Positions 7,752-21,834 of a stretch of 29,575 bases of DNA are shown in pieces. The DNA lies in contig DASYMB010000235.1 in assembly GCA_036009285.1 (NCBI GenBank), positions 1-29,575 on the forward strand, written 5' to 3'. Position 1 is the first letter of the stretch. Each line of letters starts with the position of its first letter. The position numbers were made by a program, and so were the translations under genes. A model generated the notes under the pieces. The model saw only the letters and a list, made by a program, of their open reading frames with translations. It had not been told where the DNA came from and did not search any database. Origin of the DNA: Pyrinomonadaceae bacterium. GTDB lineage: Bacteria; Acidobacteriota; Blastocatellia; Pyrinomonadales; Pyrinomonadaceae.

Positions 7752-7895
7752 GGAAAGAGGGAAACGGGAAAGGAAAGGGTAAAGGGGAAGGGGCAAACCG
7801 ACTTCGCTAATCAATCTCTGTTATCGATGCTTGGTGTTCAGCCTATCGCTCTCCTCCCCTTGACCCCTTCCCCTTTTCCCGTTTCTTTGTTTTTC
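7742..7895. repeat. Polypurine G-run tract paired with a downstream polypyrimidine tract between convergent genes
   Basis: Seven runs of three or more G at 7742-7793 and a roughly complementary C/T tract at about 7849-7895. Confidence 0.7.
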
Positions 7896-9495
7896 ACTGC
7901 CCCGGATGGTAGGTCAGCCAGAAGTAAATTGCCTGGCCTACCCCTATGATGAAACCAATGACGGCGCCGAAGAGCTCGATGGTCTTCAAGTGATGCTTAG
8001 CTACCGACAGCACCAGCGCTTCTAGCTTTTCAATCGGATAGTCTGAAACTTTCTTACGCACCAGCCCGCCTACATCAAACTCCGCAATCGCCGTCGGCAA
8101 GCGCTCGCGCGCGGCGAGGGTAATGCGTTCCACCAGCGCCGTGCTGGCACGCTGCATCGAATGCCGTGAGACGTGATCTCCGAGACGGCCAATCGGCGCC
8201 ACCAATAGTCGTTCGATATGCGAACTCAGAATCTGATTAATCGTCCGCGCAGTATCGTCTCGTGACAAAAGTCCGACCAGGCTCCTGGTCAGAAACTCTT
8301 TGGCGCGTTCAATGAAGTCAGGATCGATGTGCTGTAGCGCCGAGCCGAGCGTTTGCGGACGAAATCGTTCCAGCGCTTCGCGAATGTAAGTGGAGATTGA
8401 AGCCGACAACTCCTCGCTCTTAGCCATCTCCAAAATACGATTGGTTATCTGTTGCTTTATGGAATCAAACTTCTCCGACTCGATCTGGCCGACGAGCGTT
8501 GCTATCGGTCGGGACAGCACGTTATCGATGGTTGCGTTGAGAAACGCTTCCGCCTCCTGCTCAAAGGCGGGACCGCGCAAGTATTCTTCGATCCGGCGAG
8601 GCAGCGTTTTATTAACCAGCTCGTCAACTTCGCGGTGAATGCGCTCGCGCGAGATGAAGATCTTTTTGATCAGGGAAAGCTGTTCGTAATACTCATCCAC
8701 CTCGAGCTTGATGAGTGCGCCGATTTGTTTGCGCGTGTTCTGGCTGGTCGCGATGTCGGCCAGATGTTGCACGATGGGCGGCACCTGGCTGTCGATGCGC
8801 TCCTTAAGAAACGCGATAGTCTCCGGCGTAAACGTTTCCGCGAGAGTAGCGTTGCTGCGAGCCAGATCGTCCAAACGCCCGGAAACAAAATCCGCGATCT
8901 TCTGTTCGAGGCCTTCTTCACTGACCAGACGCTGAAAGCGATCGCGGATGAATTGGAGAATCGTGTTGAATTGATCCTCGCTGAGCGTGTCGCCGACGCG
9001 GCGCGCGAGCAACTCATCAATCTGGCGATCAACGAAAGACGCGATCGCCTCCGTAGTTTCTTCGCTCTTCAGCATCGCCGCGATGTATTCCGCCAACCGA
9101 TATTGCAGCGCGGAGATGGTATCGAGAATCGGCGCGCGCGCCTGCGAGGGCAGGGCGTCAATGAAAGAGGGATAGACCGTTGCCAGCAGATCATTGGTGT
9201 AATTACCGACGAAATCTTCAACCTTGCGGTGGAAAAAACTCGTTTCAAAGAGGGCATCAAACACCGTCTCCTGCGAGACCAGTTCGTTGCCAACTGCGTT
9301 ACCAATCGACTCCGCCAGCTTCTCGCGATGCCTGGGGATCATGCCCTGAGGCCATACGGTTATTCCAAAAACCCGCACTGGTTTGTAGGGATGAAACAGC
9401 ATCCATATCGCCAACCACGCCGCGCCGAAACCGTGAATCGTGGCGATGACGACGATTGCAATCGAGATCAGGAGTTTGAAGGTAAACGGATCCAA
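7894..9495 (-). CDS. DUF445 (YheB/UPF0754-like) membrane protein
   Basis: N-terminal TM with WMLFHPYKP and QGMIPRHREKLAESIGNAV..ELVS, a long helical middle, and C-terminal LEALVL.V...HLK.IELFGAVIGF.IG. Confidence 0.85.
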   Translation of the reverse strand: MDPFTFKLLISIAIVVIATIHGFGAAWLAIWMLFHPYKPVRVFGITVWPQGMIPRHREKLAESIGNAVGNELVSQETVFDALFETSFFHRKVEDFVGNYTNDLLATVYPSFIDALPSQARAPILDTISALQYRLAEYIAAMLKSEETTEAIASFVDRQIDELLARRVGDTLSEDQFNTILQFIRDRFQRLVSEEGLEQKIADFVSGRLDDLARSNATLAETFTPETIAFLKERIDSQVPPIVQHLADIATSQNTRKQIGALIKLEVDEYYEQLSLIKKIFISRERIHREVDELVNKTLPRRIEEYLRGPAFEQEAEAFLNATIDNVLSRPIATLVGQIESEKFDSIKQQITNRILEMAKSEELSASISTYIREALERFRPQTLGSALQHIDPDFIERAKEFLTRSLVGLLSRDDTARTINQILSSHIERLLVAPIGRLGDHVSRHSMQRASTALVERITLAARERLPTAIAEFDVGGLVRKKVSDYPIEKLEALVLSVAKHHLKTIELFGAVIGFIIGVGQAIYFWLTYHPGQ

Positions 9496-9547: not shown

Positions 9548-9675
9548 TAGCCGCGGATAAACGCGGTGGCAGGTCAGAACCACCTGCGGTAGCGGGTGGG
9601 GTCCTCAGACTGTTGCCCGCCCGCTACCGCAGGCGGTTCTGACAGATCTAAGCCGCGTAAATCCGCGGCCAAAAA
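9548..9675. repeat. Nested repeat: family A doublet (9573-9643) inside family B arms (9548-9566, 9653-9675)
   Basis: TAGCCGCGGATAAACGCGG, then GTCAGAACCACCTGCGGTAGCGGGTGGG...GCCCGCCCGCTACCGCAGGCGGTTCTGAC, then CCGCGTAAATCCGCGGCCAAAA. Confidence 0.85.
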
Positions 9676-9680
9676 CTTCC

Positions 9681-11066
9681 TTATTCCACCTCATAACCAG
9701 CATCGATCCAGGCTCCTGTGCCGCCGGTAACATTCAGAAGATTGGCGAAACCGTGCTGCTCGAGAATGCTGGTGGCTGCACTCGAGCGATAACCCCCGGC
9801 GCAGATCACTGCGGTCGGTATCGTTGGATTAAGCCCGAGGTTGGAAATGTTTTTCTGCAAACTGAGTAGCGGCGCCGGCACGGCATGAGGCACGTGTCCG
9901 CTCTGGTATTCGGGAGGCCGACGAACGTCCAAAATTTGTAACGGAGTTTCTTCTGCAATGAGCTGGTTCAATTCAGCAACCGTGATTTGCGGGATGGTAG
10001 CGAGTTCCAGACCCCACTCACGCCAAACTTCGACACCGCCATCGAGGTAACCCTTCACACTTTCGCATCCCACTCGGGCCAGACGGACCACAGCTTCATG
10101 CACTTTCGCTTCCGAATCGGTGACGATCACAATTGGCGTTTTCATCGGGATCAGTATTCCAGCCCAAATGGCAAACTGGCCCGCGAGACCAATGTTAAGA
10201 GAGCCGGGTAAATGTCCACCGCCAAAGTCTGCGGCTGAACGCACGTCGAGAATCAGGTAACCGTTAGCCGCAAGGTATTCCACCTCGTGCGGCGCCAGCG
10301 GCGCAGGAGATTGAACTTCAACCAATGCGGGCGCGCCGGTTCGATTTATTTCCGCGTCTTCGGGAAAGTAGGCGGGCGACTCGGGCAAGTCGGCGGTCAT
10401 CATTCGCACAAACTCATCTTTCGTCATCGGCTTGAGTGCATAGTTAGATAGCCGTTGCTCGCCAATAGTCGAAGATGTTTCCGTCGACAAGTTGCGTCCA
10501 CACATTGAGCCGGCGCCGTGGGCCGGATACACCTCGACGTCGTTCGCAAGTTTCAGGAGTTTGCCGTGAAGCGTGTCATACATCATGGCGGCCATCATCG
10601 GCGGCGTGTAACCCTTGCCACCCGCGAGATCGGGACGGCCCACATCGCCAACGAAGAGCGTGTCGCCGGTCAAAACTTTCTGCGGTCGATCGGAAACCTC
10701 GGAATCAATCACCAGTACGGAAATGCTTTCCGGTGTATGGCCCGGTGTTTCCATGATACCCAGGATGACTTTGCCGAGCTTGATTTCATCGCCATCGCAC
10801 ACAGCCGCGTGCGGAAATGTGGCCCCGGCCTTTGCGCCAATAACAATTTCAGCGCCGGCGCGCGCGGCGAGTTCCCGATGACCACTGACGAAATCGGCGT
10901 GCAGATGCGTCTCGATCACGTATTTGATTTTCAGCCCCAGTGCTTCGGCTTCGCTCAGATAGTGGTCCACGTCGCGCTGCGGATCAATCACCGCCGCCTC
11001 GCCATCAGAACCAATCAGGTAAGAAGCATGCGCCAAACAGCCGAGATAAAATTGCTTGAAGTACAT
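9681..11066 (-). CDS. MBL-fold persulfide dioxygenase-like hydrolase fused to two rhodanese domains (CstB/Blh-like)
   Basis: ETHLHADF, TPGHTPES, LTGDTLFVGDVGRPDL and PAHGAGSMCG. The first rhodanese domain lacks the catalytic Cys; the second has ICAGGYRS. Start chosen at MYFKQFYLGCLAHASY. Confidence 0.92.
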   Translation of the reverse strand: MYFKQFYLGCLAHASYLIGSDGEAAVIDPQRDVDHYLSEAEALGLKIKYVIETHLHADFVSGHRELAARAGAEIVIGAKAGATFPHAAVCDGDEIKLGKVILGIMETPGHTPESISVLVIDSEVSDRPQKVLTGDTLFVGDVGRPDLAGGKGYTPPMMAAMMYDTLHGKLLKLANDVEVYPAHGAGSMCGRNLSTETSSTIGEQRLSNYALKPMTKDEFVRMMTADLPESPAYFPEDAEINRTGAPALVEVQSPAPLAPHEVEYLAANGYLILDVRSAADFGGGHLPGSLNIGLAGQFAIWAGILIPMKTPIVIVTDSEAKVHEAVVRLARVGCESVKGYLDGGVEVWREWGLELATIPQITVAELNQLIAEETPLQILDVRRPPEYQSGHVPHAVPAPLLSLQKNISNLGLNPTIPTAVICAGGYRSSAATSILEQHGFANLLNVTGGTGAWIDAGYEVE

Positions 11067-11219
11067 AACAATAAGCGGCCTGCTGCAGCGCACTTAAGTA
11101 CGCAGTTTCGGTATCATCTTTGAGGGAGCAAAAAAAGTCATAGAGTTACTATTCTAACTTTAGAACAGCTTATGCAAACAAATGAAGGCTCGCAAGGGTA
11201 GTGCCCTAGTTTAGTTTTT

Positions 11220-11290
11220 GTAACGCAAACTGTAGTTTGCGCGAGCGTTGAATGCCATTCACCCATCGCAAACTAACAGTTTGCTTTACA
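11220..11290. repeat. REP-like doublet, family C (GCAAACTGTTAGTTTGCG)
   Basis: 11267-11290 is the exact reverse complement of 26781-26804. 11220-11241 matches the reverse complement of 26842-26864 with a 1-nt gap. Confidence 0.85.
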
Positions 11291-11323
11291 TATTAAGGCA
11301 CCACTCTCGCAAGACTGGATTCC

Positions 11324-11643
11324 TCAGGGAATATCCAAATGTTGAAAACGAGCGGGCTGCATCTTTTCTATGGCTTCCGCAATCAAGGAGCCGGCAGCCT
11401 GAAATGCGGTGGAGGTCGTTTGTTTGAAAGCTCCAGAATGGAGATGAGTCTGCCAGTCAGGTTTTGTTGATAGCGAATGTTCTGGTCGGAGGTAATGAAT
11501 AGATCAAATTCGGCTTCAGCTCTTTGCAACAAGTCGCCATTTCTTCGGCCACTCCATCCCTGGCCTTGCACGCTGGTGCACGAGTGGCCCGTTATTAGGC
11601 CGTGCATCGGCCAGGGCACGCACTCGTCCAGCAGAATTTTCAC
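11324..11643 (-). pseudogene. DUF5615 PIN-like toxin (VapC45-like), frameshifted near the 3' end
   Basis: MKILLDECVP...NGDLL..AE..FDLFITSDQNIRYQQN. Removing one extra A and one extra T around 11402-11427 restores LSTNDLHRIQAAGSLIAEAIEKMQPARFQHLDIP* (105 aa). The GTG start overlaps the DUF433 stop (GTGA). Confidence 0.75.
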
Positions 11644-11855
11644 GCGGCGGGAGAAAGCAAAGCCTGTTCAGAGCGTTCCAATACCTGACAGGCCAAGTCG
11701 CGGCTCACGGAGGGAAAGCACTCCAGAAACTGCTCCAATGAGTAATCGTTTTCCAAGTACTCAAAAAGAGTCTTCACCGGCACACGCGTACCTTTGAAAA
11801 CCGGCGTACCACCGAGAATCTCAGGGTCAATGGCGATGAGGTCGTTGGTGGTCAT
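11640..11855 (-). CDS. DUF433 domain antitoxin (VapB45-like)
   Basis: I.IDPEILGGTPVFKGTRVPV.TLFEYLE...SLEQFLE.FPSV signature, coupled to the DUF5615 gene. Confidence 0.92.
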   Translation of the reverse strand: MTTNDLIAIDPEILGGTPVFKGTRVPVKTLFEYLENDYSLEQFLECFPSVSRDLACQVLERSEQALLSPAA

Positions 11856-11917
11856 GGATCTGAGTTTAGTCGAAGGGTGGCCGTGCCGTAAATGCCGAAT
11901 CAATCAACCCTACCAGA

Positions 11918-14900
11918 CTAAACATGCTTCAACTCGGACCGCTCTGGCAAGCGATAAAACTCCCGCGCCGGCTTCAATGGGCGCAGCATCCAGTAGGGGC
12001 GGCGAGTGCCGTCTGGTGAATATTGATCTGCAGGTCGCGTCATTGCCAGCCACTTGCGGTAAACCTCGCGCGACTTCTCAGTATCCACAAATACATCGCC
12101 GGTGTTATCGCCGGGTTCGGCGACACGCACGCGCACCGCCTGATGCCAGCAGTGCATTCCCGAGATTGGATCGGGATGGACTGGGAAAGTCATATTCTGA
12201 TGAACGCCCACGTCGCTCCACCAAATGCGCAGCGTATCAGGGTCGCTTGACTCGTAGGGCTCGGCGCCTTTCTCACGTTTGAGTCCCCACTCGGTTCCAT
12301 CGTGATCGAGTTTCACCGTCGCCATCAACTGGCGTTGTCCCTGTTCACTCAACTTCCAGCGGCCCATGTGATGCGAGCAGGCAACGATGCCGGGACGAAT
12401 GCCTTCCGTCACCCATGCGCGCACCACGTAGTAACCAATCTCGGTTTCCACGCGCAACAGATCGCCGGTGCGCACTCCGAGTTTCGCCGCATGATTTGTG
12501 TGAATCCAAAGTGGATTCGTATGCGCGATTTCATCGAGCCATTTGGCGTTAGCGCTGCGCGTATGAATTTGCACCGGCAAACGAAAAGTCGAGATCAGGA
12601 TCGTTTGGCCCTCTTCGAGGTTGTCGGGATGAACGTGGCTCTTGATGTAAGTGGGAATCGCAAACTCATGCCAGCCCCACTCGGACAACGTGCGCGAATA
12701 GAATTCCAGACGGCCGCTCGGCGTGGGAAACCCGCGCTTGATTTCGTTTCCGACTCTAACACCTACGAAGCGCCGGCCATCTTCCTTGCCGTCGCCATCG
12801 GGACTCGGCACCGGAACGACGTTGGGCGATGCTGGTTTCGGCGCCCGCGTGTAGACGCGGCCACGTTCGTCCTCGCGAATGTCTTCGATCTCTTCCGGGC
12901 CAACGGGTTCTTCATATATCGCGCCAACTTTTTGTTTCACCTCGAAAGCGCCGTAGCGACGCATGAATTCCAGCGGCGTCAAACCTTCCGCCGCCGCTTT
13001 CTCCGGCAATCCAGGAACGGAGTTGTCGAAAATCCATTCGTAGTATTCATCCACACCGAGCCGCGTGCCCGGATTCTTTTTTGATTCGACGTACTGGCGT
13101 ATGCCGAGTGAGCCGTCCGGATCGATGCGCCAGGTCAGTTCCAACCAAAACTCATTCTCTTCCCAAACCTCGCCGGGATTCACTTTCCGGGTATCGTCAA
13201 TCGTTTCCCCTTCGCGCTGCCGATCCGCTTTCTTAACCGGCTGACGAAATCCCAACCACTGCGCGTCGTGCGTTTCGTATGAATGAATGTCATGGCGTTC
13301 CGAGCCATGGCCCATCGGCAAAACGTAGTCGGCGAAATAGGAGGTCTCGTTCCACGTCGGTGTCAGCGCCACGTAACAACCGACCAGGTCCGGATCAGTT
13401 AACATCTCGATCCAGGAGAAGCCGTCAGGATTAGTCCAGACCGGGTTGTAGACGCGCGTGAAATAAACATCGAGCTTGGCGCGTCCGTCCTTTAATAGAT
13501 GCGGCAGCAGGAACGACATCTCGTGCATCGCCAGCGGATACTCGCGCGGCCACTGTGTTTCGTTCCACATCCGCGGATGTGGCGGCGTGTAGATTGGCTT
13601 AGGCACAAACTTGTTCCAGGCATTCGGAAACACGCCGCCTTCCGTGGCGATCGCGCCGAGCAGCGCATTCAACATGAAGACCGCGCGCGCAACCGCCCAG
13701 CCGCCGCTAACTCCCGACGTCACGCTGCGCCAGTTGTGACTGGAGAAGCGCGTGCCCGCCGTCGCAATCAACTTCGCAATCTCTTCAATAGTTCTGGCGT
13801 CAACGCCGGATTCACTCGCGGCGAAGTCGAAGGTGTATTGCTGATACGTTTCTTTGAGTGCCGCCTCGAAGGTTGCGAAATCGGTTTTTACTGGGACCGC
13901 GGGCGTATCGCCCGTTTCTTCGCGCCGTAGGTGCGGAATGTTTATGGCGGCATCATTTCCATTTGAATCTTTTCCGAGCGCAGCAAAACGCTCGGCATTC
14001 TGCTCCGCTCGAAAGGAGGGTTGTGGTAGTGAGTCAGGTTCCATAAACATTTCGCCGCTCTGCGGCTGTGCTTCTGATCTCTGACCGACCTCTGACCTCT
14101 GTTCTAAGTATTCTTCCCAGTTCCACCAACGTCGCACAAACTCGCGGTTGTAGAGATCGTTTTGAATCAGATAATTCGCAATCGCCAACAACATCGCGCC
14201 CTCTGAACCGGGATAGGGCGCGACCCAGTAGTCGGCATGCGTGGCCGTGTGCGAAAGCCGCGTGTCGAAGACGATTAACTTGGCGCCGTTGGCTTTGCCG
14301 TCAATGATGCGCTGCGCGTGCGGGTTGAAATAATGGCCCGATTCCAGATGCGCGCTGATGAGCAGGATAACTTTGGCGTTCGCATGGTCGGGGCTGGGCC
14401 GATCAAGTCCCATCCATAGTTGATAACCTTCGCGGCTGCCGGAGGAACAGATGTTGGTGTGCGAGTTGTGACCATCAATTCCCCAGGCGGCGAGTATGCG
14501 TTCGGTGAAACCATCTTCGCCCGGCCGGCCGACGTGATACATGATCTCGTTGCGACGCTCCTCGACGATCGCTTTGCGAATGCGCGAGGCGATATCGTCA
14601 AGCGCTGCGTCCCAGCTAACGCGTTCCCATTTACCCTGGCCGCGTTTGCCGCTGCGCTTGAGTGGGTAAAGAATGCGATCCGGATCGTGAATCTGGTTGA
14701 GTGTTGCCGGACCTTTGGCGCAGTTGCGTCCGCGCGATCCCGGATGCTCGGGATTGCCTTCAAACTTCTGGATCTCGCCGGTGATCTTGTCGATGTAGGC
14801 GAGCAGCCCACACGCTGACTCGCAGTTGAAGCAGGTCGTGGGAACTAATGAATAGTGACGCTCCTTGCGCCGCGGCCACGCTTGCGAATCAAGCTCGGTC

Positions 14901-15034
14901 CAGTTGTCCCAACGCTCCTTCGGCGGATACGCCGCGAGATGGCTGCGCGAAGGGCCGGGATAAAACGTCTCGCCACGCGCTTCTGTTTCTTCCCGCGCAG
15001 CACCAATCAGTTGGTTTGATTCGTCAGGGTTCAT
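11918..15034 (-). CDS. Molybdopterin (bis-MGD) oxidoreductase catalytic subunit, DMSO reductase family, Psr/Phs/Ttr-like; no Tat signal
   Basis: FS0 motif C68-x2-C71-x3-C75...C105-A-K-G, then DPDRILYPLKR.G.RG.GKWE.VSWD. Candidate Mo ligand C196 (HTNICSS). Also ADYVLP and a C-terminal Mo-binding domain (F.TPSG.LEF; LWIH...A.KLG...GD). AGGAGA RBS. Confidence 0.93.
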   Translation of the reverse strand: MNPDESNQLIGAAREETEARGETFYPGPSRSHLAAYPPKERWDNWTELDSQAWPRRKERHYSLVPTTCFNCESACGLLAYIDKITGEIQKFEGNPEHPGSRGRNCAKGPATLNQIHDPDRILYPLKRSGKRGQGKWERVSWDAALDDIASRIRKAIVEERRNEIMYHVGRPGEDGFTERILAAWGIDGHNSHTNICSSGSREGYQLWMGLDRPSPDHANAKVILLISAHLESGHYFNPHAQRIIDGKANGAKLIVFDTRLSHTATHADYWVAPYPGSEGAMLLAIANYLIQNDLYNREFVRRWWNWEEYLEQRSEVGQRSEAQPQSGEMFMEPDSLPQPSFRAEQNAERFAALGKDSNGNDAAINIPHLRREETGDTPAVPVKTDFATFEAALKETYQQYTFDFAASESGVDARTIEEIAKLIATAGTRFSSHNWRSVTSGVSGGWAVARAVFMLNALLGAIATEGGVFPNAWNKFVPKPIYTPPHPRMWNETQWPREYPLAMHEMSFLLPHLLKDGRAKLDVYFTRVYNPVWTNPDGFSWIEMLTDPDLVGCYVALTPTWNETSYFADYVLPMGHGSERHDIHSYETHDAQWLGFRQPVKKADRQREGETIDDTRKVNPGEVWEENEFWLELTWRIDPDGSLGIRQYVESKKNPGTRLGVDEYYEWIFDNSVPGLPEKAAAEGLTPLEFMRRYGAFEVKQKVGAIYEEPVGPEEIEDIREDERGRVYTRAPKPASPNVVPVPSPDGDGKEDGRRFVGVRVGNEIKRGFPTPSGRLEFYSRTLSEWGWHEFAIPTYIKSHVHPDNLEEGQTILISTFRLPVQIHTRSANAKWLDEIAHTNPLWIHTNHAAKLGVRTGDLLRVETEIGYYVVRAWVTEGIRPGIVACSHHMGRWKLSEQGQRQLMATVKLDHDGTEWGLKREKGAEPYESSDPDTLRIWWSDVGVHQNMTFPVHPDPISGMHCWHQAVRVRVAEPGDNTGDVFVDTEKSREVYRKWLAMTRPADQYSPDGTRRPYWMLRPLKPAREFYRLPERSELKHV
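13880..14104 (-). repeat. Stack of REP-like palindromes and heptamer filler, translated in frame inside the molybdoenzyme
   Basis: CTGGGACCGCGGGCGTATCGCCCG (13891-13914). Inverted arms GCCGTAGGTGCGGAATGTTTATGG (13924-13947) and CCATAAACATTTCGCCGCTCTGCGGC (14041-14066). Hairpin CCGAGCG/CGCTCGG (13974-13995). TCTGACC-type heptamers (14073-14101). Confidence 0.65.
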
Positions 15035-15266
15035 TATCTCCTGTTGGCCCTCGCTTTGCCTTAACGGGCTATTCTCTGATAAGCGATATCAAATAAGTTT
15101 TTTGTGATTGGCAAATCATCTGGCCTCTTCTGCCTAGGCCGCATCAATTTGCTTTTTGATTCAGACCGTCCAGGCTTTTCAAGCAGGAGCCAGAGAGCAT
15201 TTGCGAGTGCGCCAAGGCGCTAGAGCAGCGCAGCCTCAATAACTGATTGAAGTCGTGAAGCATAGA

Positions 15267-15605
15267 CTAGCTCGATCGCAACAACGTATTCAGCTTTTTC
15301 AACGCTTCATCCGTTACAGAAGCTGGAAGTCTACAAATCAATTTGGTGTCACGAGCTTTCCAGTCGAGATTCTTGACTTGATCTGACAAGATTGCTCCCG
15401 TCACCTTCAAACCGTGAGGGATGATTACCTCAAATGGGTAGCCTTTGATCTGATTTGTAATCGGGCAAAGAACAACGAGGCCGACTTTGCGATTGTAGGC
15501 GACAGGCGACAACACCACTGCCGGTCGCCTGCCCGCCTGTTCGTGTCCGGCTTGTGGATCAAGCGTAACCCATACGGCATCGCCTCGATCGGGAGCATAC
15601 GCCAT
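15267..15605 (-). CDS. mazF: MazF/PemK endoribonuclease toxin
   Basis: P.RGD.VWV.LDPQAGHEQAGRRPAVVLSP..YN.K.GL...CPIT.Q.KGYPFEV; ILSDQVKNLDW.AR. TAATG overlap with mazE. Confidence 0.95.
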   Translation of the reverse strand: MAYAPDRGDAVWVTLDPQAGHEQAGRRPAVVLSPVAYNRKVGLVVLCPITNQIKGYPFEVIIPHGLKVTGAILSDQVKNLDWKARDTKLICRLPASVTDEALKKLNTLLRSS

Positions 15606-15847
15606 TACCAAACCTCTTTTCCAAGCGAAGCCCCGAAATCGACTTCCGAGTGAAGATTCTTTTTGGTTACTCGAGCCAGCAAATCCTCTAAGGAGTAATT
15701 TTGTTCTTTCGTCGGTTCCACGATCATTCTGCCATTGTCCAGCGATAAATCAACCACTGTGCCTTGCACTATGCTTGAGTGCGTCGCAAAAGACTTGGGA
15801 ATTCGCAACGCCAAACTATTTCCCCATTTTTGAATTGTAGCTTTCAT
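15605..15847 (-). CDS. mazE: MazE/AbrB-family antitoxin
   Basis: IQKWGNSLALRIPK...YSLEDLLA.VT..NLH.EVDFG...GKEVW. GAGGAGGA RBS. Confidence 0.95.
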   Translation of the reverse strand: MKATIQKWGNSLALRIPKSFATHSSIVQGTVVDLSLDNGRMIVEPTKEQNYSLEDLLARVTKKNLHSEVDFGASLGKEVW

Positions 15848-15923
15848 CGTCTATTCCTCCTCGGTGTCTACAATGAAGATACTACAAGTCGAAGTCGGAA
15901 AACCATTTCAGCACAGCAAAATG

Positions 15924-17522
15924 TCACGCCAGCGGCACCGATTGTCCGGCCTGCACGTAAGCATTCTCGTAAAGCATCATTCCAACTAAGGCCAGCGGCA
16001 CGCCAACGACGCCCAGGGATATGCTGACGTAACCAAGAATCGCGAGCCACGGCAACAGTCCGCCGAGAAACGACAGTGCAACACCGATCCAGAAGTCTCC
16101 CTTGTAACGACCACGTACCATTTCCCAAACAGCAAGACGCGCGTGGGCCGTTGAGTGTGTAAGCGACACTTCACCCCAGATCATCAGCAAGTGGAGCAGG
16201 CTTGTTATCGCGAGCAACCAAATCGAAGCCGCCACAGGAGGAGCCGTGCCAATATGGGGGTCGAGAATGTCCCGAGCGTTCGGACCGACAGTCCATAAAG
16301 TAATGAACAGCAGCACAGCCGAGCCCAGCAGCAACGCCTGCACAAGCAGATGCGGAGGCAGCAGCGGGTTTTGCCACATGTCGCGCGCCTTTGCTTGCGC
16401 AAAAAGAAAAGCCGTATAGATCGCGGTCATGATCGACAACGGAATTCCCGCGAGCATCAACCAACTTTGCAGTGTTCTTGATCCCAGCCAACTGGCAAGG
16501 AAATGAAGCGCGAGGACAAGCGTGTAGCCGGCAATGATGAATGCGCCTTTCACCAGCCAACTGCGCCACTGCGGTCGCGTGAAGATCAGATAGAAGCGCT
16601 CCGGATGTTCGAGGTCCCAGATTAAGAGCCCGCCAGTGATCGCCAGAAAGACGCCGGAAACAAGCGGCGTGGCCCAGAGCCAAATAGAATTGTTAACACT
16701 TAAGAATCCAAACCAGACGAGCAATGCCACAACGAGATACACACCAGCGGCAATCCCCTTGGTCCAGGTATAAAGGCTGACCTTCCAGTCCCAGGGAATC
16801 GCGTGCGCGACGTCATAGGAAAGCAGCGCCGCTGCCGAGCTGTTGTTGTAGTTTGGATTCCCGGAAACGACTTGCGACGAACCTTCCTGCTGCTCGCTCC
16901 ACATGAAGAGTCCGCCGTCGGGTCGTCGTGCGGCGAGCGGATCGAGCGTCGACTGATGCGCGCCCTTGTAAAAAAGTTTCGGCAGCGTTTCCTTCTCGGG
17001 TCGCCTTACAGCGACCGCCTCGCGATTGACGATTTGCGAAACGTACGATTCGGTATCGTTCAAGTCGCCGATTAGAATTGCCTGCGTCGGACAGACGACC
17101 ACGCACGCGGGCTCGAGACCCACGTCGATGCGATGCGCGCAGAAGTTACATTTCTCGGCTGAATGATCTTCGGGATTAATGAAAATCGCATCGTAAGGGC
17201 AAGCGGCCATGCAGGCTTTGCAACCGATGCAGATCGACTTATCAAAATCGACTATGCCATCGTCGCGCTTAAACATCGCGGTGGTGGGGCAGGCGGTGAC
17301 GCATGGCGCATGAGCGCATTGGTTGCAACGCGTGACTTGATGTGCGCGGCGGGCCTGCGGAAAAATTCCTACATCAACATGCTTCACATAGGTGCGCGTC
17401 ACCGAGAGCGGCACCAGATTCTCCGACTTGCACGCGGTGGTACACGCATGACAACCAATGCAACGCGTTTGGTCGATGACCTTGGCCCACTGCACCGCGC
17501 GATTTTGTGGTTCTTCGAGCAT
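15924..17522 (-). CDS. Fusion of a 4x[4Fe-4S] DmsB/NrfC-type subunit and an NrfD/PsrC-type membrane anchor (about 8 TM)
   Basis: Cys clusters CIGCHACTTAC, CNQCAHAPCVTAC, CIGCKACMAAC and CNFC...PACVVVC. NrfD features W.W.VSLY..TKGIAAG, DLEHPERF..I..RPQW.SWL..GA and about 8 hydrophobic segments. Start chosen at MLEEPQ. Confidence 0.92.
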   Translation of the reverse strand: MLEEPQNRAVQWAKVIDQTRCIGCHACTTACKSENLVPLSVTRTYVKHVDVGIFPQARRAHQVTRCNQCAHAPCVTACPTTAMFKRDDGIVDFDKSICIGCKACMAACPYDAIFINPEDHSAEKCNFCAHRIDVGLEPACVVVCPTQAILIGDLNDTESYVSQIVNREAVAVRRPEKETLPKLFYKGAHQSTLDPLAARRPDGGLFMWSEQQEGSSQVVSGNPNYNNSSAAALLSYDVAHAIPWDWKVSLYTWTKGIAAGVYLVVALLVWFGFLSVNNSIWLWATPLVSGVFLAITGGLLIWDLEHPERFYLIFTRPQWRSWLVKGAFIIAGYTLVLALHFLASWLGSRTLQSWLMLAGIPLSIMTAIYTAFLFAQAKARDMWQNPLLPPHLLVQALLLGSAVLLFITLWTVGPNARDILDPHIGTAPPVAASIWLLAITSLLHLLMIWGEVSLTHSTAHARLAVWEMVRGRYKGDFWIGVALSFLGGLLPWLAILGYVSISLGVVGVPLALVGMMLYENAYVQAGQSVPLA

Positions 17523-17721
17523 GCAAGCTCCGGTTCCAGGATTTTGCGGAGAGCGAACTATATCATGCAACTAAGAAAAGAAAACGTGCGCATTTAGTTG
17601 GAAACTAGCAGCCAGACAAGTCTGCGACACGAGTGCAGCATTGACAAAAGCACACAGGCATAAGAAATTAGCCTCGGATTATTTGTGGTTAGTTATTATG
17701 GTTTCATCAGGAGGTTTATCG

Positions 17722-18198
17722 ATGCGTCTTACTATTTCCTTTTTTGCCCTTACGGTGTTTGCCCTCGGCGTGTTGACCGCTTGCAACTCCGCCGAGTGGA
17801 GGAATGCGCGAACTGCTTCCGGGGTCACGGCTCCACAAGCCGCTACACCAACCGCCGATGGTGTGCGACGCGTTACCGTTACCGAGCTGAAAGATTTGTT
17901 GGCAAAGGATGAAGCCATAGTTATCGACGTGCGCAACGAGGCTGCTTATAACAGCGGCCACATCAGGGGGGCGAAACTGATTCCGGAGGCTGAAGTCGTA
18001 AATCATATCGATGAGCTGCCGAAGAATAAATTGATTGTCACCTATTGCTCTTGACCAAACGAACATACGTCCGCCCGTGCGGTGGCCGATCTGAAAACAA
18101 AGGGTGTCTCAAACGCCGGCGCGCTACTTGGTGGTTTCGCTGCCTGGCAAAATGCAGGTCTCCCGGTCGATGCTAAAGCCGCGAGTCCGGCTCCCTGA
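17722..18198 (+). CDS. Rhodanese-domain lipoprotein, predicted selenoprotein (C109-S-U111) by UGA read-through
   Basis: AGGAGG RBS and lipobox LTA-C. Rhodanese motifs IDVRN...Y..GHI.GA and LIVTYCS-[TGA 18052-18054]-PNEHTSARAV..L...G......LLGGFAAWQNAGLPV, with the next stop at 18196-18198. Confidence 0.85.
18055..18087 (+). promoter_or_regulatory. Candidate bacterial SECIS hairpin
   Basis: CCGCC-CGTGC-GGTGG stem-loop at 18071-18085, starting 16 nt after the UGA, with G at loop position 2. Confidence 0.55.
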
Positions 18199-18212: not shown

Positions 18213-18809
18213 ATGCACTGTTCCAACTGCGGATCCTACATCGCGCCCGGAGTGCGCTTTTGTTCCGGGTGTGGATCACCCGCCGACGATCCTGAAGCCA
18301 CGCGAATTGTTCGTGCCCAGCGCGGTATTCCAGTTCCCGAGAACTACGACCGCGCCGCGGACGATGATCTGGAGCAGGTGATTTTCACCGTGCGTCCAAC
18401 TTTGATCTTCATCAAGGTCGGTTATGCTTTGGCGATAGTGGGAGCGATTTCGCTTGTTATCCTCCTCGCGATGATCCAGATGCCGGTCTATATTTCGCTG
18501 CCGTTGGCCCTGTCGTTGCTTCTGATTCCGGCCTATTACCACCTCAAGCGAAACATGGTGCGGTACACTTTGACCGACTCAAAAATTGAGATCGATACCG
18601 GACTAATCGCCCGAACCACGCGCAACATTCCCCTCGCCAAGATTCAGGACGTGACCGTTTCCGCCAGCATTCCGCAACGGCTCCTCGGCTTTGGCGATTT
18701 GTTGATAGACAACGCGAGCGAGTTGGGCGGCACGACGATCCTTCGCAATATCACCCATCCCCGCCGCCACGCCGACCTTCTTTTGCGCGAACTCCGACGC
18801 CGGCATTAA
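18213..18809 (+). CDS. Zinc-ribbon plus bacterial PH-domain (YdbS/bPH_2-like) membrane protein
   Basis: CSNCG...FCSGCG, two TM segments, and Y.LTD..IEI.TGLI.R.TRNIPL.KIQDVTV...IPQRLLGFGDL.ID. Confidence 0.85.
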   Translation: MHCSNCGSYIAPGVRFCSGCGSPADDPEATRIVRAQRGIPVPENYDRAADDDLEQVIFTVRPTLIFIKVGYALAIVGAISLVILLAMIQMPVYISLPLALSLLLIPAYYHLKRNMVRYTLTDSKIEIDTGLIARTTRNIPLAKIQDVTVSASIPQRLLGFGDLLIDNASELGGTTILRNITHPRRHADLLLRELRRRH

Positions 18810-18902: not shown

Positions 18903-20087
18903 ATGTTGTTGCTCTACCCCCAGTTCATAAGATTTTTGTCAGTGTTGGCGTTTGCGCTACTTTTATTCATACCGGTAGCTGGCCAAAGCCTGACAACCGA
19001 CCCGGCAGCCAAACTATTGCCGGATAAGTTGGGAGAGTTTCGGGCTGCGGGCCCGCCGAGCAAGGTGACTCTTGAGGATTCCATTGAGCGTGGCGGCATC
19101 ACTTCGGCAGCTAGTCGCAATTATGTCTCAAAAGATGGCAGACGTTTTTACGTTACCCTGGTCACGACCGTTTCCGACTCCGGGGCTTATGCGCTGCTTA
19201 CGGAAGCCAAGTTGAGGGCCGAACACTTTGGAGACGATCACGGTACGGCTAACGCCGATATCGGAAGCGCGGGCTTTTCTGTTGGGAATGGACTTGCCAA
19301 CACCAATTTGTATTTCTTCAAAGGGCGAGCTTACGCCTCCCTTCATGAGGAGGGAAAACCGCGGAACGAGCAGGCCCTCTTGAACTTCGGCAAAACGCTT
19401 GCGGACGCGCTCGATAACGGCGCCGGAGAAATCCCGGTTCTCGTAAGGCACCTTCCTGATTGGCAGAATGTGCAATCACGGGTTTTATACGCGGTCAATC
19501 AAAACAGTCTAAAAAATCAGTTCAGCAATCAAGCAGTTATCGATGCGGTAAGTTTCGAGGGTGGAGCGGAAGCTGTCGTTGCGAGCTACGGTCCCGAGCA
19601 GCTCGCGATCGTGGAATTCAACACTGCTTCGCTGGCCACCGACAATAACCAACGCATTAGCGCAAAGATTCAGGAGTTGCAGGCCCAAGGCCAACCTGTC
19701 CCTTCGGCCTATCGTCGGGTTGGCAACTATGCGGTGTTTGTTTTTAACGCACCTAACCAGGAAGCGGCCGATAAACTAATCGACCAGGTGAAGTATCAGC
19801 AGGTGGTGCAATGGCTGGGGGAAAATCCCTTCTCCTATGAAAAAGCGACCAGGGAATTCACCGAGACTACCCTGGGAGTTTTTGTTTCCGTAGTAAAAGC
19901 GTCGGGTCTGGCTCTGGTGACCTGTCTCGCGGTCGGTGGCTTGTTCGGTACGCTGCTATTTAGAGCCAGGCGTTCGCAGCAGCGGGCCCGCGCGGCGTAT
20001 TCAGATTCCGATGCGATGCTCCGGCTAAACCTGGATGAGTTGACTCCGGAATCCGAGCCTGGCCGGCTACTCGGGCGTGGAAACTAG
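18903..20087 (+). CDS. Exported protein with C-terminal membrane anchor (DUF6599-like, tentative)
   Basis: N-terminal signal peptide, soluble domain, C-terminal TM (ALVTCLAVGGLFGTLLF) and basic tail. The family label is from recall only. Confidence 0.6.
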   Translation: MLLLYPQFIRFLSVLAFALLLFIPVAGQSLTTDPAAKLLPDKLGEFRAAGPPSKVTLEDSIERGGITSAASRNYVSKDGRRFYVTLVTTVSDSGAYALLTEAKLRAEHFGDDHGTANADIGSAGFSVGNGLANTNLYFFKGRAYASLHEEGKPRNEQALLNFGKTLADALDNGAGEIPVLVRHLPDWQNVQSRVLYAVNQNSLKNQFSNQAVIDAVSFEGGAEAVVASYGPEQLAIVEFNTASLATDNNQRISAKIQELQAQGQPVPSAYRRVGNYAVFVFNAPNQEAADKLIDQVKYQQVVQWLGENPFSYEKATREFTETTLGVFVSVVKASGLALVTCLAVGGLFGTLLFRARRSQQRARAAYSDSDAMLRLNLDELTPESEPGRLLGRGN

Positions 20088-20557: not shown

Positions 20558-20710
20558 GTAGGACAGACATTCCTGTCTGTTCATATTTGTCAGAACCGCC
20601 TGCGGTAGCGGGCGGGCAATGGTCGGTGGACCCACCCGCTACCGCAGGTGGTTCTGACCTTTTGTGCAATCCGCGCGTTAATTCGCGGCTAATTTAGTTC
20701 ACGGCTAATT
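20558..20710. repeat. Composite repeat cluster: GTAG-type REP, family A doublet and family B arms
   Basis: GTAG-G-ACAGAC-ATTCCT-GTCTGT (20558-20580), family A doublet (20589-20658), ATCCGCGCGTTAATTCGCGGCTAATTT (20669-20695) and a second CGGCTAATTT that overlaps the aminotransferase 3' end. Confidence 0.8.
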
Positions 20711-21834
20711 TGGTGAAGAGCCTTTATCAATTCATCTATCTCTTCCAGCGTGTTGTAAAAATGAGGCGAGATTCTAAGCCGATCGCCACGCGGAGCCGTA
20801 ATAATGTTTCTCTTCTTCAGGTGAGCGTAAAGATCCATCGAAGTAAGTCCAGCCGTGTGACGTACACAAACAATTTGAGATTTTTCCATTGGTCGCCGCG
20901 AGCTGACCACCTCGTAACGAGTGTCCTGAAGCTGTTCACACAGACGATCTGTAAGCATTTCGAGGTGTGATTGGATCGGGCTGATGCCCACTTCGTTCAG
21001 GAGGTTCAGGCTCGCTTCCAACCCATGTATCAGGGCGACCGGACCCGTGCCGGTTTCCCAGGCAAGCGTTCCCCGGTTCCATCCCTGCGCGAAATTTCCA
21101 TAATCTTCCGGATTGGGAACGCTGGTCCAGCCTACCAGCGTTGGCTGGATACGCTCGCGCGCCCGAGTGGAAAGGTATAGCAGACCCACTCCTTCGGGCG
21201 TCAGCAGCCACTTATGACAAGCCGCCGCGGCGACGTCGACGAGCTCAGATTCGACGTCGATAGGAATTACCCCCAGTGCCTGAATCACATCAACCACCAG
21301 CAGCGCATCGTGGACACGAGCAGCGCGCCCGATGCGCTCCAGGTCTGCACGAAAGCCCGAAGCGTACTGAACCTGGCTAATGGCGACCAGGCGAGTTTTG
21401 CTATCAATCAATGCGATCAGTTCATCGATACCCACGCGACCCTGCCGCTCTTCACAGAGACGCACTTCCACACCCAACGTGTCTCGAATGCGTAGCCAGG
21501 GATAAAGGTTTGAAGGGAACTCGTTACGGAAGGTCACGAGGTTATCGCCCGGGCGCCAATCAAGGCCGTTTGCCACGGTGGAAAGTCCGTCGGAAGTATT
21601 TCGCACGAACGCGACTTGCTCTGCGCGGGCGCCAAGCAACTCGGCGACAAGCCGGCGGGCGTTTTCTTTAACTGCAATCCAATTCCGAAAGTTTACCGAT
21701 CCGTTTTCGGAAACGTCCGCCAGTTGCGACTGAATCGCCTTCAGTGTCGGAATGGGCGGCGCGGAAACAGCAGCGTGGTTCAAATAGATAACGCGCTCAG
21801 TAACTGGAAAGAGCGCGCGCAAGGTGTCGTTCAT
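20689..21834 (-). CDS. PLP-dependent class V aminotransferase / cysteine desulfurase-like protein
   Basis: YLNHAAVS, RNTSDG, EFPSN, ISQVQYASG, LLVVDVIQALG, CHKWLL.PEG.G (PLP Lys) and LRISPHFYN. Confidence 0.88.
   Translation of the reverse strand: MNDTLRALFPVTERVIYLNHAAVSAPPIPTLKAIQSQLADVSENGSVNFRNWIAVKENARRLVAELLGARAEQVAFVRNTSDGLSTVANGLDWRPGDNLVTFRNEFPSNLYPWLRIRDTLGVEVRLCEERQGRVGIDELIALIDSKTRLVAISQVQYASGFRADLERIGRAARVHDALLVVDVIQALGVIPIDVESELVDVAAAACHKWLLTPEGVGLLYLSTRARERIQPTLVGWTSVPNPEDYGNFAQGWNRGTLAWETGTGPVALIHGLEASLNLLNEVGISPIQSHLEMLTDRLCEQLQDTRYEVVSSRRPMEKSQIVCVRHTAGLTSMDLYAHLKKRNIITAPRGDRLRISPHFYNTLEEIDELIKALHQISRELN

Follow-up and report, generated by a model that had tools for sequence, protein, structure and literature searches.

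Here, we describe a two-gene molybdenum (Mo) oxidoreductase encoded in a 29,575-nucleotide stretch of DNA from a Pyrinomonadaceae bacterium. The whole stretch, hereafter called the window, is contig C235 of a 3.27-Mb metagenome-assembled genome (MAG, completeness 77%) of soil metagenome origin, whose closest relatives are Pyrinomonadaceae and Blastocatellia. A Mo catalytic subunit (11918-15034, minus strand, 1038 aa) and a fusion protein that joins an iron-sulfur (FeS) domain to an NrfD-type membrane domain (15924-17570, minus strand, 548 aa) form a fixed gene pair, and the evidence supports one quinone-linked complex of the Psr/Phs-like radiation. As far as can be judged from the two sequences, the complex faces the cytoplasm. 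Its best-fitting role, to which we assign a probability of about 0.5, would be sulfite:quinone oxidation in the manner of SoeABC; we infer the substrate, the direction of electron flow and the coupling to a neighbouring persulfide dioxygenase. An earlier note on this DNA had combined four genes into a sulfur or selenium redox module, namely the FeS-NrfD fusion, the Mo enzyme and a gene for a metallo-beta-lactamase (MBL) fold protein with two rhodanese domains (9681-11093), following one another in this order on the minus strand, and a divergent rhodanese with selenocysteine (Sec) on the plus strand (17641/17722-18198). Open reading frame (ORF) and Pfam evidence finds all four genes in this arrangement.

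The catalytic subunit contains all three Pfam domains of enzymes with a Mo-bis(pyranopterin guanine dinucleotide) (Mo-bisPGD) cofactor, Molybdop_Fe4S4, Molybdopterin and Molydop_binding, each above its cut-off. Residue invariance was checked in 21 family sequences. All four cysteines of the motif for its single [4Fe-4S] cluster, FS0 (C68-x2-C71-x3-C75...C105), are invariant, and so is C196, which aligns to Cys173 of Thermus PsrA. The latter is the Mo ligand in the 2vpw structure, and Cys196 is thus the probable Mo ligand of the enzyme described here. The named models fit from a distance only: PhsA is the top NCBIfam model with 197.5 bits against a cut-off of 694, and TtrA (116.7 against 1750), ArrA (108.1 against 1600), QrcB (103.4 against 440) and DmsA (94 against 1600) stay below their cut-offs as well. 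The best match in the PDB is again Thermus PsrA (2vpw, 3.7e-35), with ArrA and acetylene hydratase as the other top solved relatives. An AlphaFold2 model built from the 21-sequence alignment is poor (mean predicted local distance difference test score, pLDDT, 57.7), and therefore the Foldseek ranks and identities derived from it are to be read as rough only: in Swiss-Prot, PsrA, PhsA, acetylene hydratase and NapA come first, then SoeA of Allochromatium, all at 16-18% identity. By the evidence at hand, the enzyme does not appear to be an orthologue of SoeA, PsrA or PhsA. Direct reading of its N-terminus, with family representatives likewise checked, finds no twin-arginine translocation (Tat) motif RRxF[LK].

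In the fusion protein, a single ORF joins an N-terminal four-cluster ferredoxin domain (Pfam Fer4_11, 1.2e-22) to an NrfD/PsrC-type quinone-binding domain (NrfD, 1.1e-19). The N-terminal part matches the NCBIfam models TtrB, DsrO and NrfC and the C-terminal part DsrP, all of them below cut-off. The true start is probably the ATG at 17522, and direct reading of the N-terminus of the ferredoxin domain reveals no RRxF[LK] motif here either. A hydropathy scan gives seven clear transmembrane segments between approximately 272 and 533, while an eighth helix would be expected within 490-513. The loops rich in lysine and arginine (321-343, 390-407 and 465-490) share their side of the membrane with the N-terminal FeS domain and fit an N-in topology. 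Since neither protein carries a Tat signal and the loop charges place the FeS domain inside, the whole complex is predicted to face the cytoplasm. That the Mo subunit binds the FeS partner would follow from homology.

Evidence for a joint function comes from the conservation of the pair. We compared 80 related loci, 44 of which are well flanked, that is, with at least 4 kb on both sides. The FeS-NrfD gene immediately precedes the Mo gene in 68 of the 80 loci and in 43 of the 44 well-flanked ones, an arrangement that for this reason is not due to chance. The pair is also intact in the cultured organisms Thermomicrobium roseum (TRD_RS12030 and TRD_RS12035), Rhodococcus jostii RHA1 (RHA1_RS43835 and RHA1_RS43840) and Natrinema. 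Thus, both genes constitute a fixed two-gene unit, and the view of the earlier note that they encode a quinone-linked, Psr/Phs-like complex is borne out by this pairing.

Relatives of the Mo subunit, counted at the species level, occur in at least 598 species, a lower bound, with 62-85% identity across phyla; Acidobacteriota, Gemmatimonadota, Actinomycetota, Chloroflexota, Binatia, Planctomycetota and Myxococcota are among them. Among cultured carriers, identity to the Mo subunit is 60% in T. roseum, 57% on plasmid pRHL3 of R. jostii RHA1 and 50-54% in several haloarchaea. The family is thus widespread and strongly conserved, yet it is named only generically in the databases: the source annotations read just "molybdopterin-dependent oxidoreductase" or "anaerobic selenocysteine-containing dehydrogenase". 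Its distribution at shorter range is patchy. We surveyed 121 genomes of the acidobacterial class to which the window belongs, and 48 of them are Mo-positive and 73 Mo-negative; the own family holds the enzyme in 12 of 29 genomes and one genus in 0 of 15. In another class, covered by a search centred on the "Gammaproteobacteria" MAG of locus L034 that yielded nothing but further family members, 92 of 201 genomes have it.

A sulfur-related function is suggested by the genes that accompany the pair. In the 44 well-flanked loci, we find a TorD/NarJ-like chaperone gene downstream (29 loci), an MBL-rhodanese gene (18), a SulP-STAS permease gene (13) and a class-V aminotransferase gene (6); in addition, DsrE2-like genes and an ArsR-family regulator with weak similarity to BigR recur near the Mo genes. 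Immediately ahead of the enzyme pair, T. roseum has a gene for a CsoR-family regulator, and in Natrinema the pair is followed by Mrp/NBP35. R. jostii RHA1 carries the gene string DsrE-TusA-FeS/NrfD-Mo-Mrp/NBP35; three MBL genes, trxA and two ArsR genes lie in its surroundings. Because CstB-like, SulP, DsrE2, TusA and ArsR- or CsoR-type regulator genes recur across phyla, a role in sulfur metabolism, as the earlier note had proposed, finds support.

The same neighbourhoods bear on the possibility that the substrate is not a sulfur compound at all but an arsenic or antimony species, an organic compound or another oxyanion, and that the sulfur genes are nearby by chance or through a shared stress regulon. 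ArsR-family regulators are indeed frequent neighbours, and 26 of the 44 well-flanked loci are without an MBL-rhodanese gene. Chance or a stress regulon would have to account for several independent kinds of sulfur-handling genes that recur in unrelated phyla and in differing orders, and in the loci examined no ars, arr or aio genes were seen. We therefore regard a non-sulfur substrate as improbable.

Among the recurrent neighbours, the MBL-rhodanese gene deserves a closer look. Its 470-aa product (Pfam Lactamase_B and two Rhodanese stretches) has a non-haem-iron domain of the MBL fold ahead of two rhodanese domains, and the final one contains the catalytic loop C-A-G-G-Y-R-S. Full-length matches in the PDB are 3tp9 (3.7e-89) and 3r2u (5e-59); the latter we take to be S. 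aureus CstB, the PDB title reading only "metallo-beta-lactamase family protein". Further matches are BpPRF (5ve3, 1.2e-27), a persulfide dioxygenase-rhodanese fusion, and ETHE1 (4chl, 2.7e-17). The alignments retain the HxHADF motif, the cysteine of GAGS-x-CG and the catalytic cysteine of the C-terminal rhodanese (C-x5-R/S loop). The protein is not a Blh equivalog, since the NCBIfam Blh model scores 51.6 against a cut-off of 625. CstB and the related fusions (3r2u, 3tp9, 5ve3) have the same three-domain layout at moderate identity, and we predict the product of 9681-11093 to be a CstB-type persulfide dioxygenase-sulfurtransferase. In S. aureus, cstB is part of the cst operon together with cstA and sqr under the control of CstR, without an adjoining molybdoenzyme gene.

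Near the Mo genes, the CstB-like gene has at least three placements. Pyrinomonadaceae have it downstream of them; in Binatia and some Actinomycetota it precedes them on the same strand, and in Micromonospora it precedes them in divergent orientation. Such differing orders across unrelated phyla argue for selection of a functional link rather than for one inherited arrangement, and we regard this comparison of gene orders as good evidence that the CstB-like gene is functionally linked with the Mo enzyme. The link is a facultative one. With 18 of 44 well-flanked loci having the gene and 26 lacking it, the CstB-type gene is a recurrent but optional neighbour, and in the class genomes compared, CstB-like and Mo genes lie on different contigs beyond the window's own family. 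The idea of the earlier note that the four genes make up one obligate system does not stand up to these numbers, the less so as 46 of the 73 Mo-negative genomes have the MBL-rhodanese gene, too. The check that the note had asked for, whether the four genes co-occur across genomes, came out differently for each gene: FeS-NrfD and Mo genes are almost always paired (43 of 44), the CstB-like gene is optional, and the Sec-rhodanese, discussed below, is not associated with the enzyme.

In the proposed mechanism, the CstB-type enzyme would oxidise cytoplasmic low-molecular-weight persulfides with O2 to sulfite and thiosulfate. Sulfite would then be oxidised to sulfate at the Mo-bisPGD site of the catalytic subunit, which would be docked on the ferredoxin domain of the FeS-NrfD fusion. 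From there, two electrons would pass via FS0 and the four clusters of the ferredoxin domain, five FeS clusters altogether, to quinone in the NrfD domain, and sulfate would leave the cell through SulP wherever a SulP gene is present. A downstream SulP gene agrees with cytoplasmic sulfate formation followed by export.

The known cytoplasm-facing sulfite:quinone enzyme is SoeABC from Allochromatium vinosum, Aquifex aeolicus and Ruegeria pomeroyi (PMC8076601). Like the complex in the window, it is membrane-bound, combines a Mo-bisPGD subunit with a four-cluster FeS and an NrfD-type subunit, has hydrophilic subunits devoid of Tat signals, and faces the cytoplasm (PMC8076601). The catalytic subunits are similar in length (967 aa in SoeA, D3RNN8, and 1038 aa here), and SoeA is the sole Cys-liganded sulfur enzyme whose Foldseek alignment reaches query residue 980, albeit with the poor model and with NarG of Haloferax reaching it too. 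The gene context would fit intracellular sulfite, as it does for SoeABC. The taxonomic ranges differ: SoeC was found by a survey in Pseudomonadota, Clostridia and Aquificae (PMC8076601), whereas the Mo family presented here comprises Acidobacteriota, Actinomycetota, Gemmatimonadota, Chloroflexota, Binatia, Planctomycetota and haloarchaea.

A second candidate for comparison is PSRLC3, the polysulfide-reductase-like complex 3 of green sulfur bacteria. According to the literature, two genes encode it (PMC5473276), and a function as sulfite oxidase has been inferred (PMC5473276, PMC9324843, PMC6338057). Matched by these descriptions only, it resembles the window's complex in its two-gene, Tat-less, Psr-like layout and in its proposed function, and the two may correspond to each other. 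The setting differs: here, the host is a soil heterotroph and the partner a persulfide dioxygenase that needs O2. PSRLC3 works alongside the Dsr system in anaerobic phototrophs. The earlier note had called its module undescribed. This needs to be qualified insofar as a two-gene cytoplasmic complex with inferred sulfite oxidation already bears a name (PMC5473276, PMC9324843).

By sequence and structure, the best matches are PsrABC and PhsABC (Thermus thermophilus 2vpw, Wolinella, Salmonella), which share the Mo-ligand cysteine, the FS0 motif and the FeS/NrfD modules. They are exported by the Tat system, periplasmic, and made of three separate subunits; the enzyme here is Tat-less, has the FeS and NrfD parts fused, and its catalytic subunit is approximately 250 aa longer. 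The closest 50%-identity clusters outside the family are of both kinds, one without a Tat signal (44%) and three with Tat signals (35-44%: P0126, P0146 and P0189). The two contexts examined, those of P0126 and P0146, are split B-C-A-TorD clusters, in the case of P0126 followed by an extra FeS protein. Plasmid genes from Azoarcus KH32C and Sulfurovum mangrovi (33-37%) are likewise located in split B-C-A-TorD clusters, and none of these outside clusters and plasmid genes reaches any curated threshold. P0126 and P0189 share the N-terminal motif Y-P-P-x-E-x-W with the enzyme of the window. Matches on plasmids comprise cultured family members but no certain SoeA, the one in Phaeobacter being a different enzyme of 1142 aa. 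Taken at the level of sequence and gene order, the family looks like a side branch, fused and turned inwards, of a B-C-A-type radiation close to Psr/Phs, within which the orientation of the enzyme has apparently been flipped. The lineage of bacterial SreA (bSreA) and SoeA has been called a large and under-appreciated radiation (PMC10100899).

Several of these observations weigh against sulfite as the substrate. Since the closest outside clusters include Tat-exported enzymes, the orientation, and possibly also the substrate, has apparently changed within the radiation. SoeABC has three subunits encoded in the order A-B-C, whereas here B and C are fused and the order is BC-A, and SoeA of Allochromatium (D3RNN8) reaches only Foldseek rank 7 at 18% identity on the poor model, no closer than PsrA or PhsA. 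The window itself contains neither a TorD-like nor a SulP gene, and PF02613 has no match in the genome, which is 77% complete. The CstB-like gene is found in 82 of the 121 class genomes, 36 of 48 among the Mo-positive and 46 of 73 among the Mo-negative ones. Characterised CstB yields mainly thiosulfate rather than free sulfite. Finally, DsrE and TusA in the enzyme operon of RHA1 could indicate a carrier-bound sulfane sulfur substrate.

The main alternative builds on the last two points. It states that the Mo complex oxidises sulfane sulfur, as a persulfide on TusA, DsrE or a rhodanese, or else thiosulfate derived from CstB, and passes the electrons to quinone, which would provide an oxygen-independent route parallel to the dioxygenase. 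It can draw on the RHA1 string, in which genes for DsrE and TusA immediately precede the enzyme pair, on the DsrE2-like genes of other loci, on rhodanese domains and a cysteine-desulfurase-like gene that recur nearby, and on the nearest solved or named relatives, which are polysulfide and thiosulfate enzymes. On the other hand, we know of no Mo-bisPGD enzyme that oxidises a protein persulfide, a SulP neighbour fits sulfate as the product, and both DsrE and TusA are absent from the window and from most loci. All in all, we consider this alternative unlikely but the most serious of the competitors of sulfite oxidation.

The same relatives raise the question of direction. A cytoplasm-facing reductase for polysulfide, sulfur, thiosulfate or tetrathionate could use quinol to remove excess sulfane sulfur, and PhsA and PsrA are the best model and structure matches. 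The bacterial sulfur reductase "SreA" groups with SoeA in published trees (PMC10100899). A reductase is difficult to reconcile with a family that is common in aerobic soil phyla and placed beside an O2-dependent dioxygenase, and it leaves the SulP neighbour unexplained. An early account of the Aquifex enzyme, reportedly as a sulfur reductase, had run along similar lines; this enzyme has since been redefined as the sulfite dehydrogenase SoeABC (PMC8076601). The reductive direction is, in our view, very improbable.

Should the Mo enzyme indeed oxidise sulfite or other cytoplasmic sulfur to sulfate, it would close the gap at the end of heterotrophic sulfide detoxification in soils and sediments, and tie this final step to respiration via quinone. 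If the alternative with sulfane sulfur or thiosulfate were true instead, aerobic and facultative soil bacteria as well as haloarchaea would possess an energy-conserving, O2-independent pathway leading from persulfide to sulfate, one that goes uncounted in present surveys of sulfur-cycle genes. The cultured carriers R. jostii RHA1, T. roseum and Natrinema make the function directly testable. Standard searches for sulfur genes seem to overlook this Mo family. A study of the Bohai Sea did not detect SoeABC (PMC12345210). Gemmatimonadota MAGs from Bohai Sea sediments that are named with the station codes of that study (M3, M8, BHB10) hold the Mo family (loci L028, L037, L041 and L056).

The fourth gene of the proposed module is a selenoprotein gene in its own right. 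The rhodanese ORF is interrupted by an in-frame TGA at 18052-18054 inside the active-site loop; read-through adds 47 residues and completes the domain, and the true stop is the TGA at 18196-18198. The N-terminus has a lipoprotein signal with the lipobox L-T-A-C. The loop reads Y-C-S-U-P-N-E-H-T-S, with a cysteine two residues before Sec. Sec would occupy the catalytic position, because a six-residue loop follows it (compare the loop of the neighbouring MBL-rhodanese). Each of the 14 orthologous and paralogous copies in related loci has a TGA at the same codon, within the consensus Y-C-[SA]-U-[PH]-[ANS]-E-[HQ]-[TS]-S-A. At the class level, the gene occurs in 50 of 121 genomes, and most matches have the TGA; some copies show no in-frame stop and may carry cysteine instead.

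A hairpin resembling a selenocysteine insertion sequence (SECIS) begins 16 nt downstream of the UGA here (18068-18088, plus strand, core stem 18071-18085), at 16-19 nt across the copies, and has a conserved G-U in its loop. Nearly all copies retain the core stem. In a comparison of 15 sequences, 92 of 105 pair cells are paired, and only 28-41 remain so once the 3' partner is slid. Compensatory changes occur at pair 20-34 (C-G in six sequences, G-C in seven), and pair 22-32 alternates between G-C and G-U. Folded from this one sequence, the hairpin is no better than its shuffles (z = +1.7), and coding constraint may contribute to the conservation of the stem. The genome holds the Sec machinery with selA (538.9 bits), selB (340.3) and selD (359.1), all above cut-off, and a tRNA-Sec on contig C404. 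The SelD gene itself (G000:C405:128-1054, locus L090) has an in-frame TGA, and SelD is probably a selenoprotein, too.

The NCBIfam model NF041203, "rhodanese-related (seleno)protein" (rhodanese_LYCAU), scores 88 bits, below its cut-off of 115. In both, one rhodanese domain holds Sec within an active-site loop Y-C-x-U, while the sub-equivalog score, the lipoprotein signal and the tandem copies often seen in relatives point to a related but separate branch. Rhodanese-related sulfurtransferases have been listed as selenoproteins since the Sargasso Sea survey of Zhang et al. in 2005 (PMC1088965). Taking the conserved TGA, the Sec machinery, the SECIS-like stem and the lipobox together, the protein is a genuine exported selenoprotein, just as the earlier note had suspected, and one that adds a well-supported member to the selenoproteins of Acidobacteriota.

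Its assignment to the enzyme is another matter. The rival view, in which the four genes form a single quinone-linked system that turns over or detoxifies sulfane sulfur or oxyanions of selenium, the Sec-rhodanese being its outer-face carrier, is fed by gene adjacency. The Sec-rhodanese is divergent next to the FeS-NrfD gene here, across the gap of about 200 bp that had been described (151 bp from the TTG start of the FeS-NrfD gene, approximately 200 bp from its first ATG), and in L003, L004, L006, L008, L015 and L017. In L022-L024 and L030 the distance is up to approximately 5 kb; genera g1 and g4 show the adjacency as well, and a shared promoter region is possible. These are some acidobacterial loci only, of Pyrinomonadaceae, 10 of about 17 with enough upstream flank, and among the 80 loci the gene is absent from all of the at least 50 outside Acidobacteriota. 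At the genome level, it shows no association with the Mo enzyme, being present in 22 of the 48 Mo-positive genomes and in 28 of the 73 Mo-negative ones. In four relatives (L022, L023, L024 and L030), a sulfate/thiosulfate ATP-binding cassette importer intervenes between the Sec-rhodanese and the FeS-NrfD gene. The predicted sides of the membrane disagree, too: the rhodanese is an exported lipoprotein and the Tat-less enzyme is turned towards the cytoplasm, so that direct delivery of a substrate by a lipoprotein on the outer face is impossible. The use of Sec is uninformative with regard to a selenium substrate; SelD of the genome is probably a selenoprotein as well. The single four-gene system thus appears quite improbable to us. 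Nothing in the data points to the selenium-oxyanion turnover that had been envisaged; this substrate was rejected, its sole basis having been the Sec in the neighbouring exported protein.

Rather than to the enzyme complex, the Sec-rhodanese belongs to the local sulfur gene neighbourhood. Its probable role, on the outer face of the membrane, is the handling of thiosulfate or sulfane sulfur, or else selenol/thiol redox chemistry. The importers of L022, L023, L024 and L030 consist of a substrate-binding protein (TIGR00971, above cut-off), a CysT/W-like permease and an ATPase; these loci have one or two tandem Sec-rhodanese genes and, beyond them, a tandem universal stress protein.

In the lineage of the window, two pairs of toxin-antitoxin type and interspersed repeats are inserted at the gene junctions. 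MazE (15605-15847, minus strand, MazE_antitoxin 2e-10) and MazF (15267-15611, minus strand, PemK_toxin 6.1e-26), both above Pfam cut-offs and overlapping by 7 nt, separate the FeS-NrfD and Mo genes, and they are absent from 80 of 80 related loci. No repeat was found in the gaps on either side of MazEF. The FeS-NrfD/Mo junction measures 12-130 bp in other phyla as compared to 180-3800 bp in Pyrinomonadaceae, where it is a hot spot of small accessory genes (loci L003-L031 versus L032-L082): MazEF here, and DinB, Uma2 and unnamed ORFs in relatives. Between the Mo and the CstB-like gene, a DUF433 gene (11640-11903, minus strand, 3.8e-16) and a DUF5615-like ORF (11383-11643, minus strand) form a putative pair of the same type; of the 80 related loci, two have DUF433 and none has DUF5615. 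The DUF5615-like ORF is borderline (22.8 bits against a Pfam cut-off of 23.8; 86 aa, profile positions 1-57 of 110) and may be a decayed toxin gene. The earlier description of genes separated by toxin-antitoxin modules and repeats therefore stands for MazEF and the repeats, with the second pair less certain. As all insertions are co-directional, transcription could possibly read through the inserted pairs.

The DUF5615-like ORF is followed by a 289-bp gap that contains a repeat. A family of approximately 30-nt repeats, with about 225 copies on 118 contigs, is represented near 11265-11300. Just downstream of the CstB-like gene, a palindrome resembling repetitive extragenic palindromic (REP) elements is located at 9573-9643 (~70 nt, 28-nt arms, 93% complementary). 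It yields 219 BLAST hits, 209 of them outside the contig, and has more than 100 copies on 77 contigs of the genome; additional copies in the window are found at 20588-20660 and 1-74. The depth of aligned metagenome contigs is 70-1075 over repeats and 6-30 over the flanks, with 690-1075 at the palindrome 9573-9643.

The Mo gene carries an insertion, too. Residues ~313-384 (13880-14104, minus strand) represent an insertion of about 70-75 aa that is in frame and specific to the lineage: the match breaks at residues ~312 and ~385 in 39 of the 47 other genomes of the class, whereas it spans the insertion in three genomes of the same family (G092, G007 and G002). The pLDDT drops below 50 at residues 315-381, inside the insertion, which is disordered in the model. 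Its DNA is partly repeat-like, with short repeat matches to other contigs at 13895-13920 and 14045-14070, and metagenome contigs connect 11289/90 with 13888-91. The aligned soil-metagenome contigs comprise repeats and strain variants only, and no RNA run was found that contains this DNA. An Rfam search of the window gave no match, and a promoter and terminator scan of the window predicted fewer sites than in shuffled sequence.

Some further genes surround the region. A class-V aminotransferase gene (20689-21834, minus strand, Aminotran_5 3e-56) is cysteine-desulfurase-like, with 144 bits to the SufS family, below cut-off, and its product is a possible source of persulfide. Homologues lie approximately 4-6 kb or less from the Mo gene in seven loci of several phyla, namely L003, L004 and L015 (acidobacterial), L033 and L079 (Binatia), L039 and L067. 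The DUF445 membrane protein gene at 7894-9495 (minus strand, Pfam DUF445 9.2e-30) is a conserved downstream neighbour in Pyrinomonadaceae only, following the CstB-like or TorD-like gene in 14 acidobacterial loci; a sulfur role of its product is not evident. Directly after the Sec-rhodanese, a gene for a membrane protein with a zinc ribbon and a bPH_2 domain (18213-18809) is located here and in L003, L004, L006 and L015. The gene at 18903-20087 encodes a DUF6599-like protein of 394 aa, which has counterparts in three related loci.

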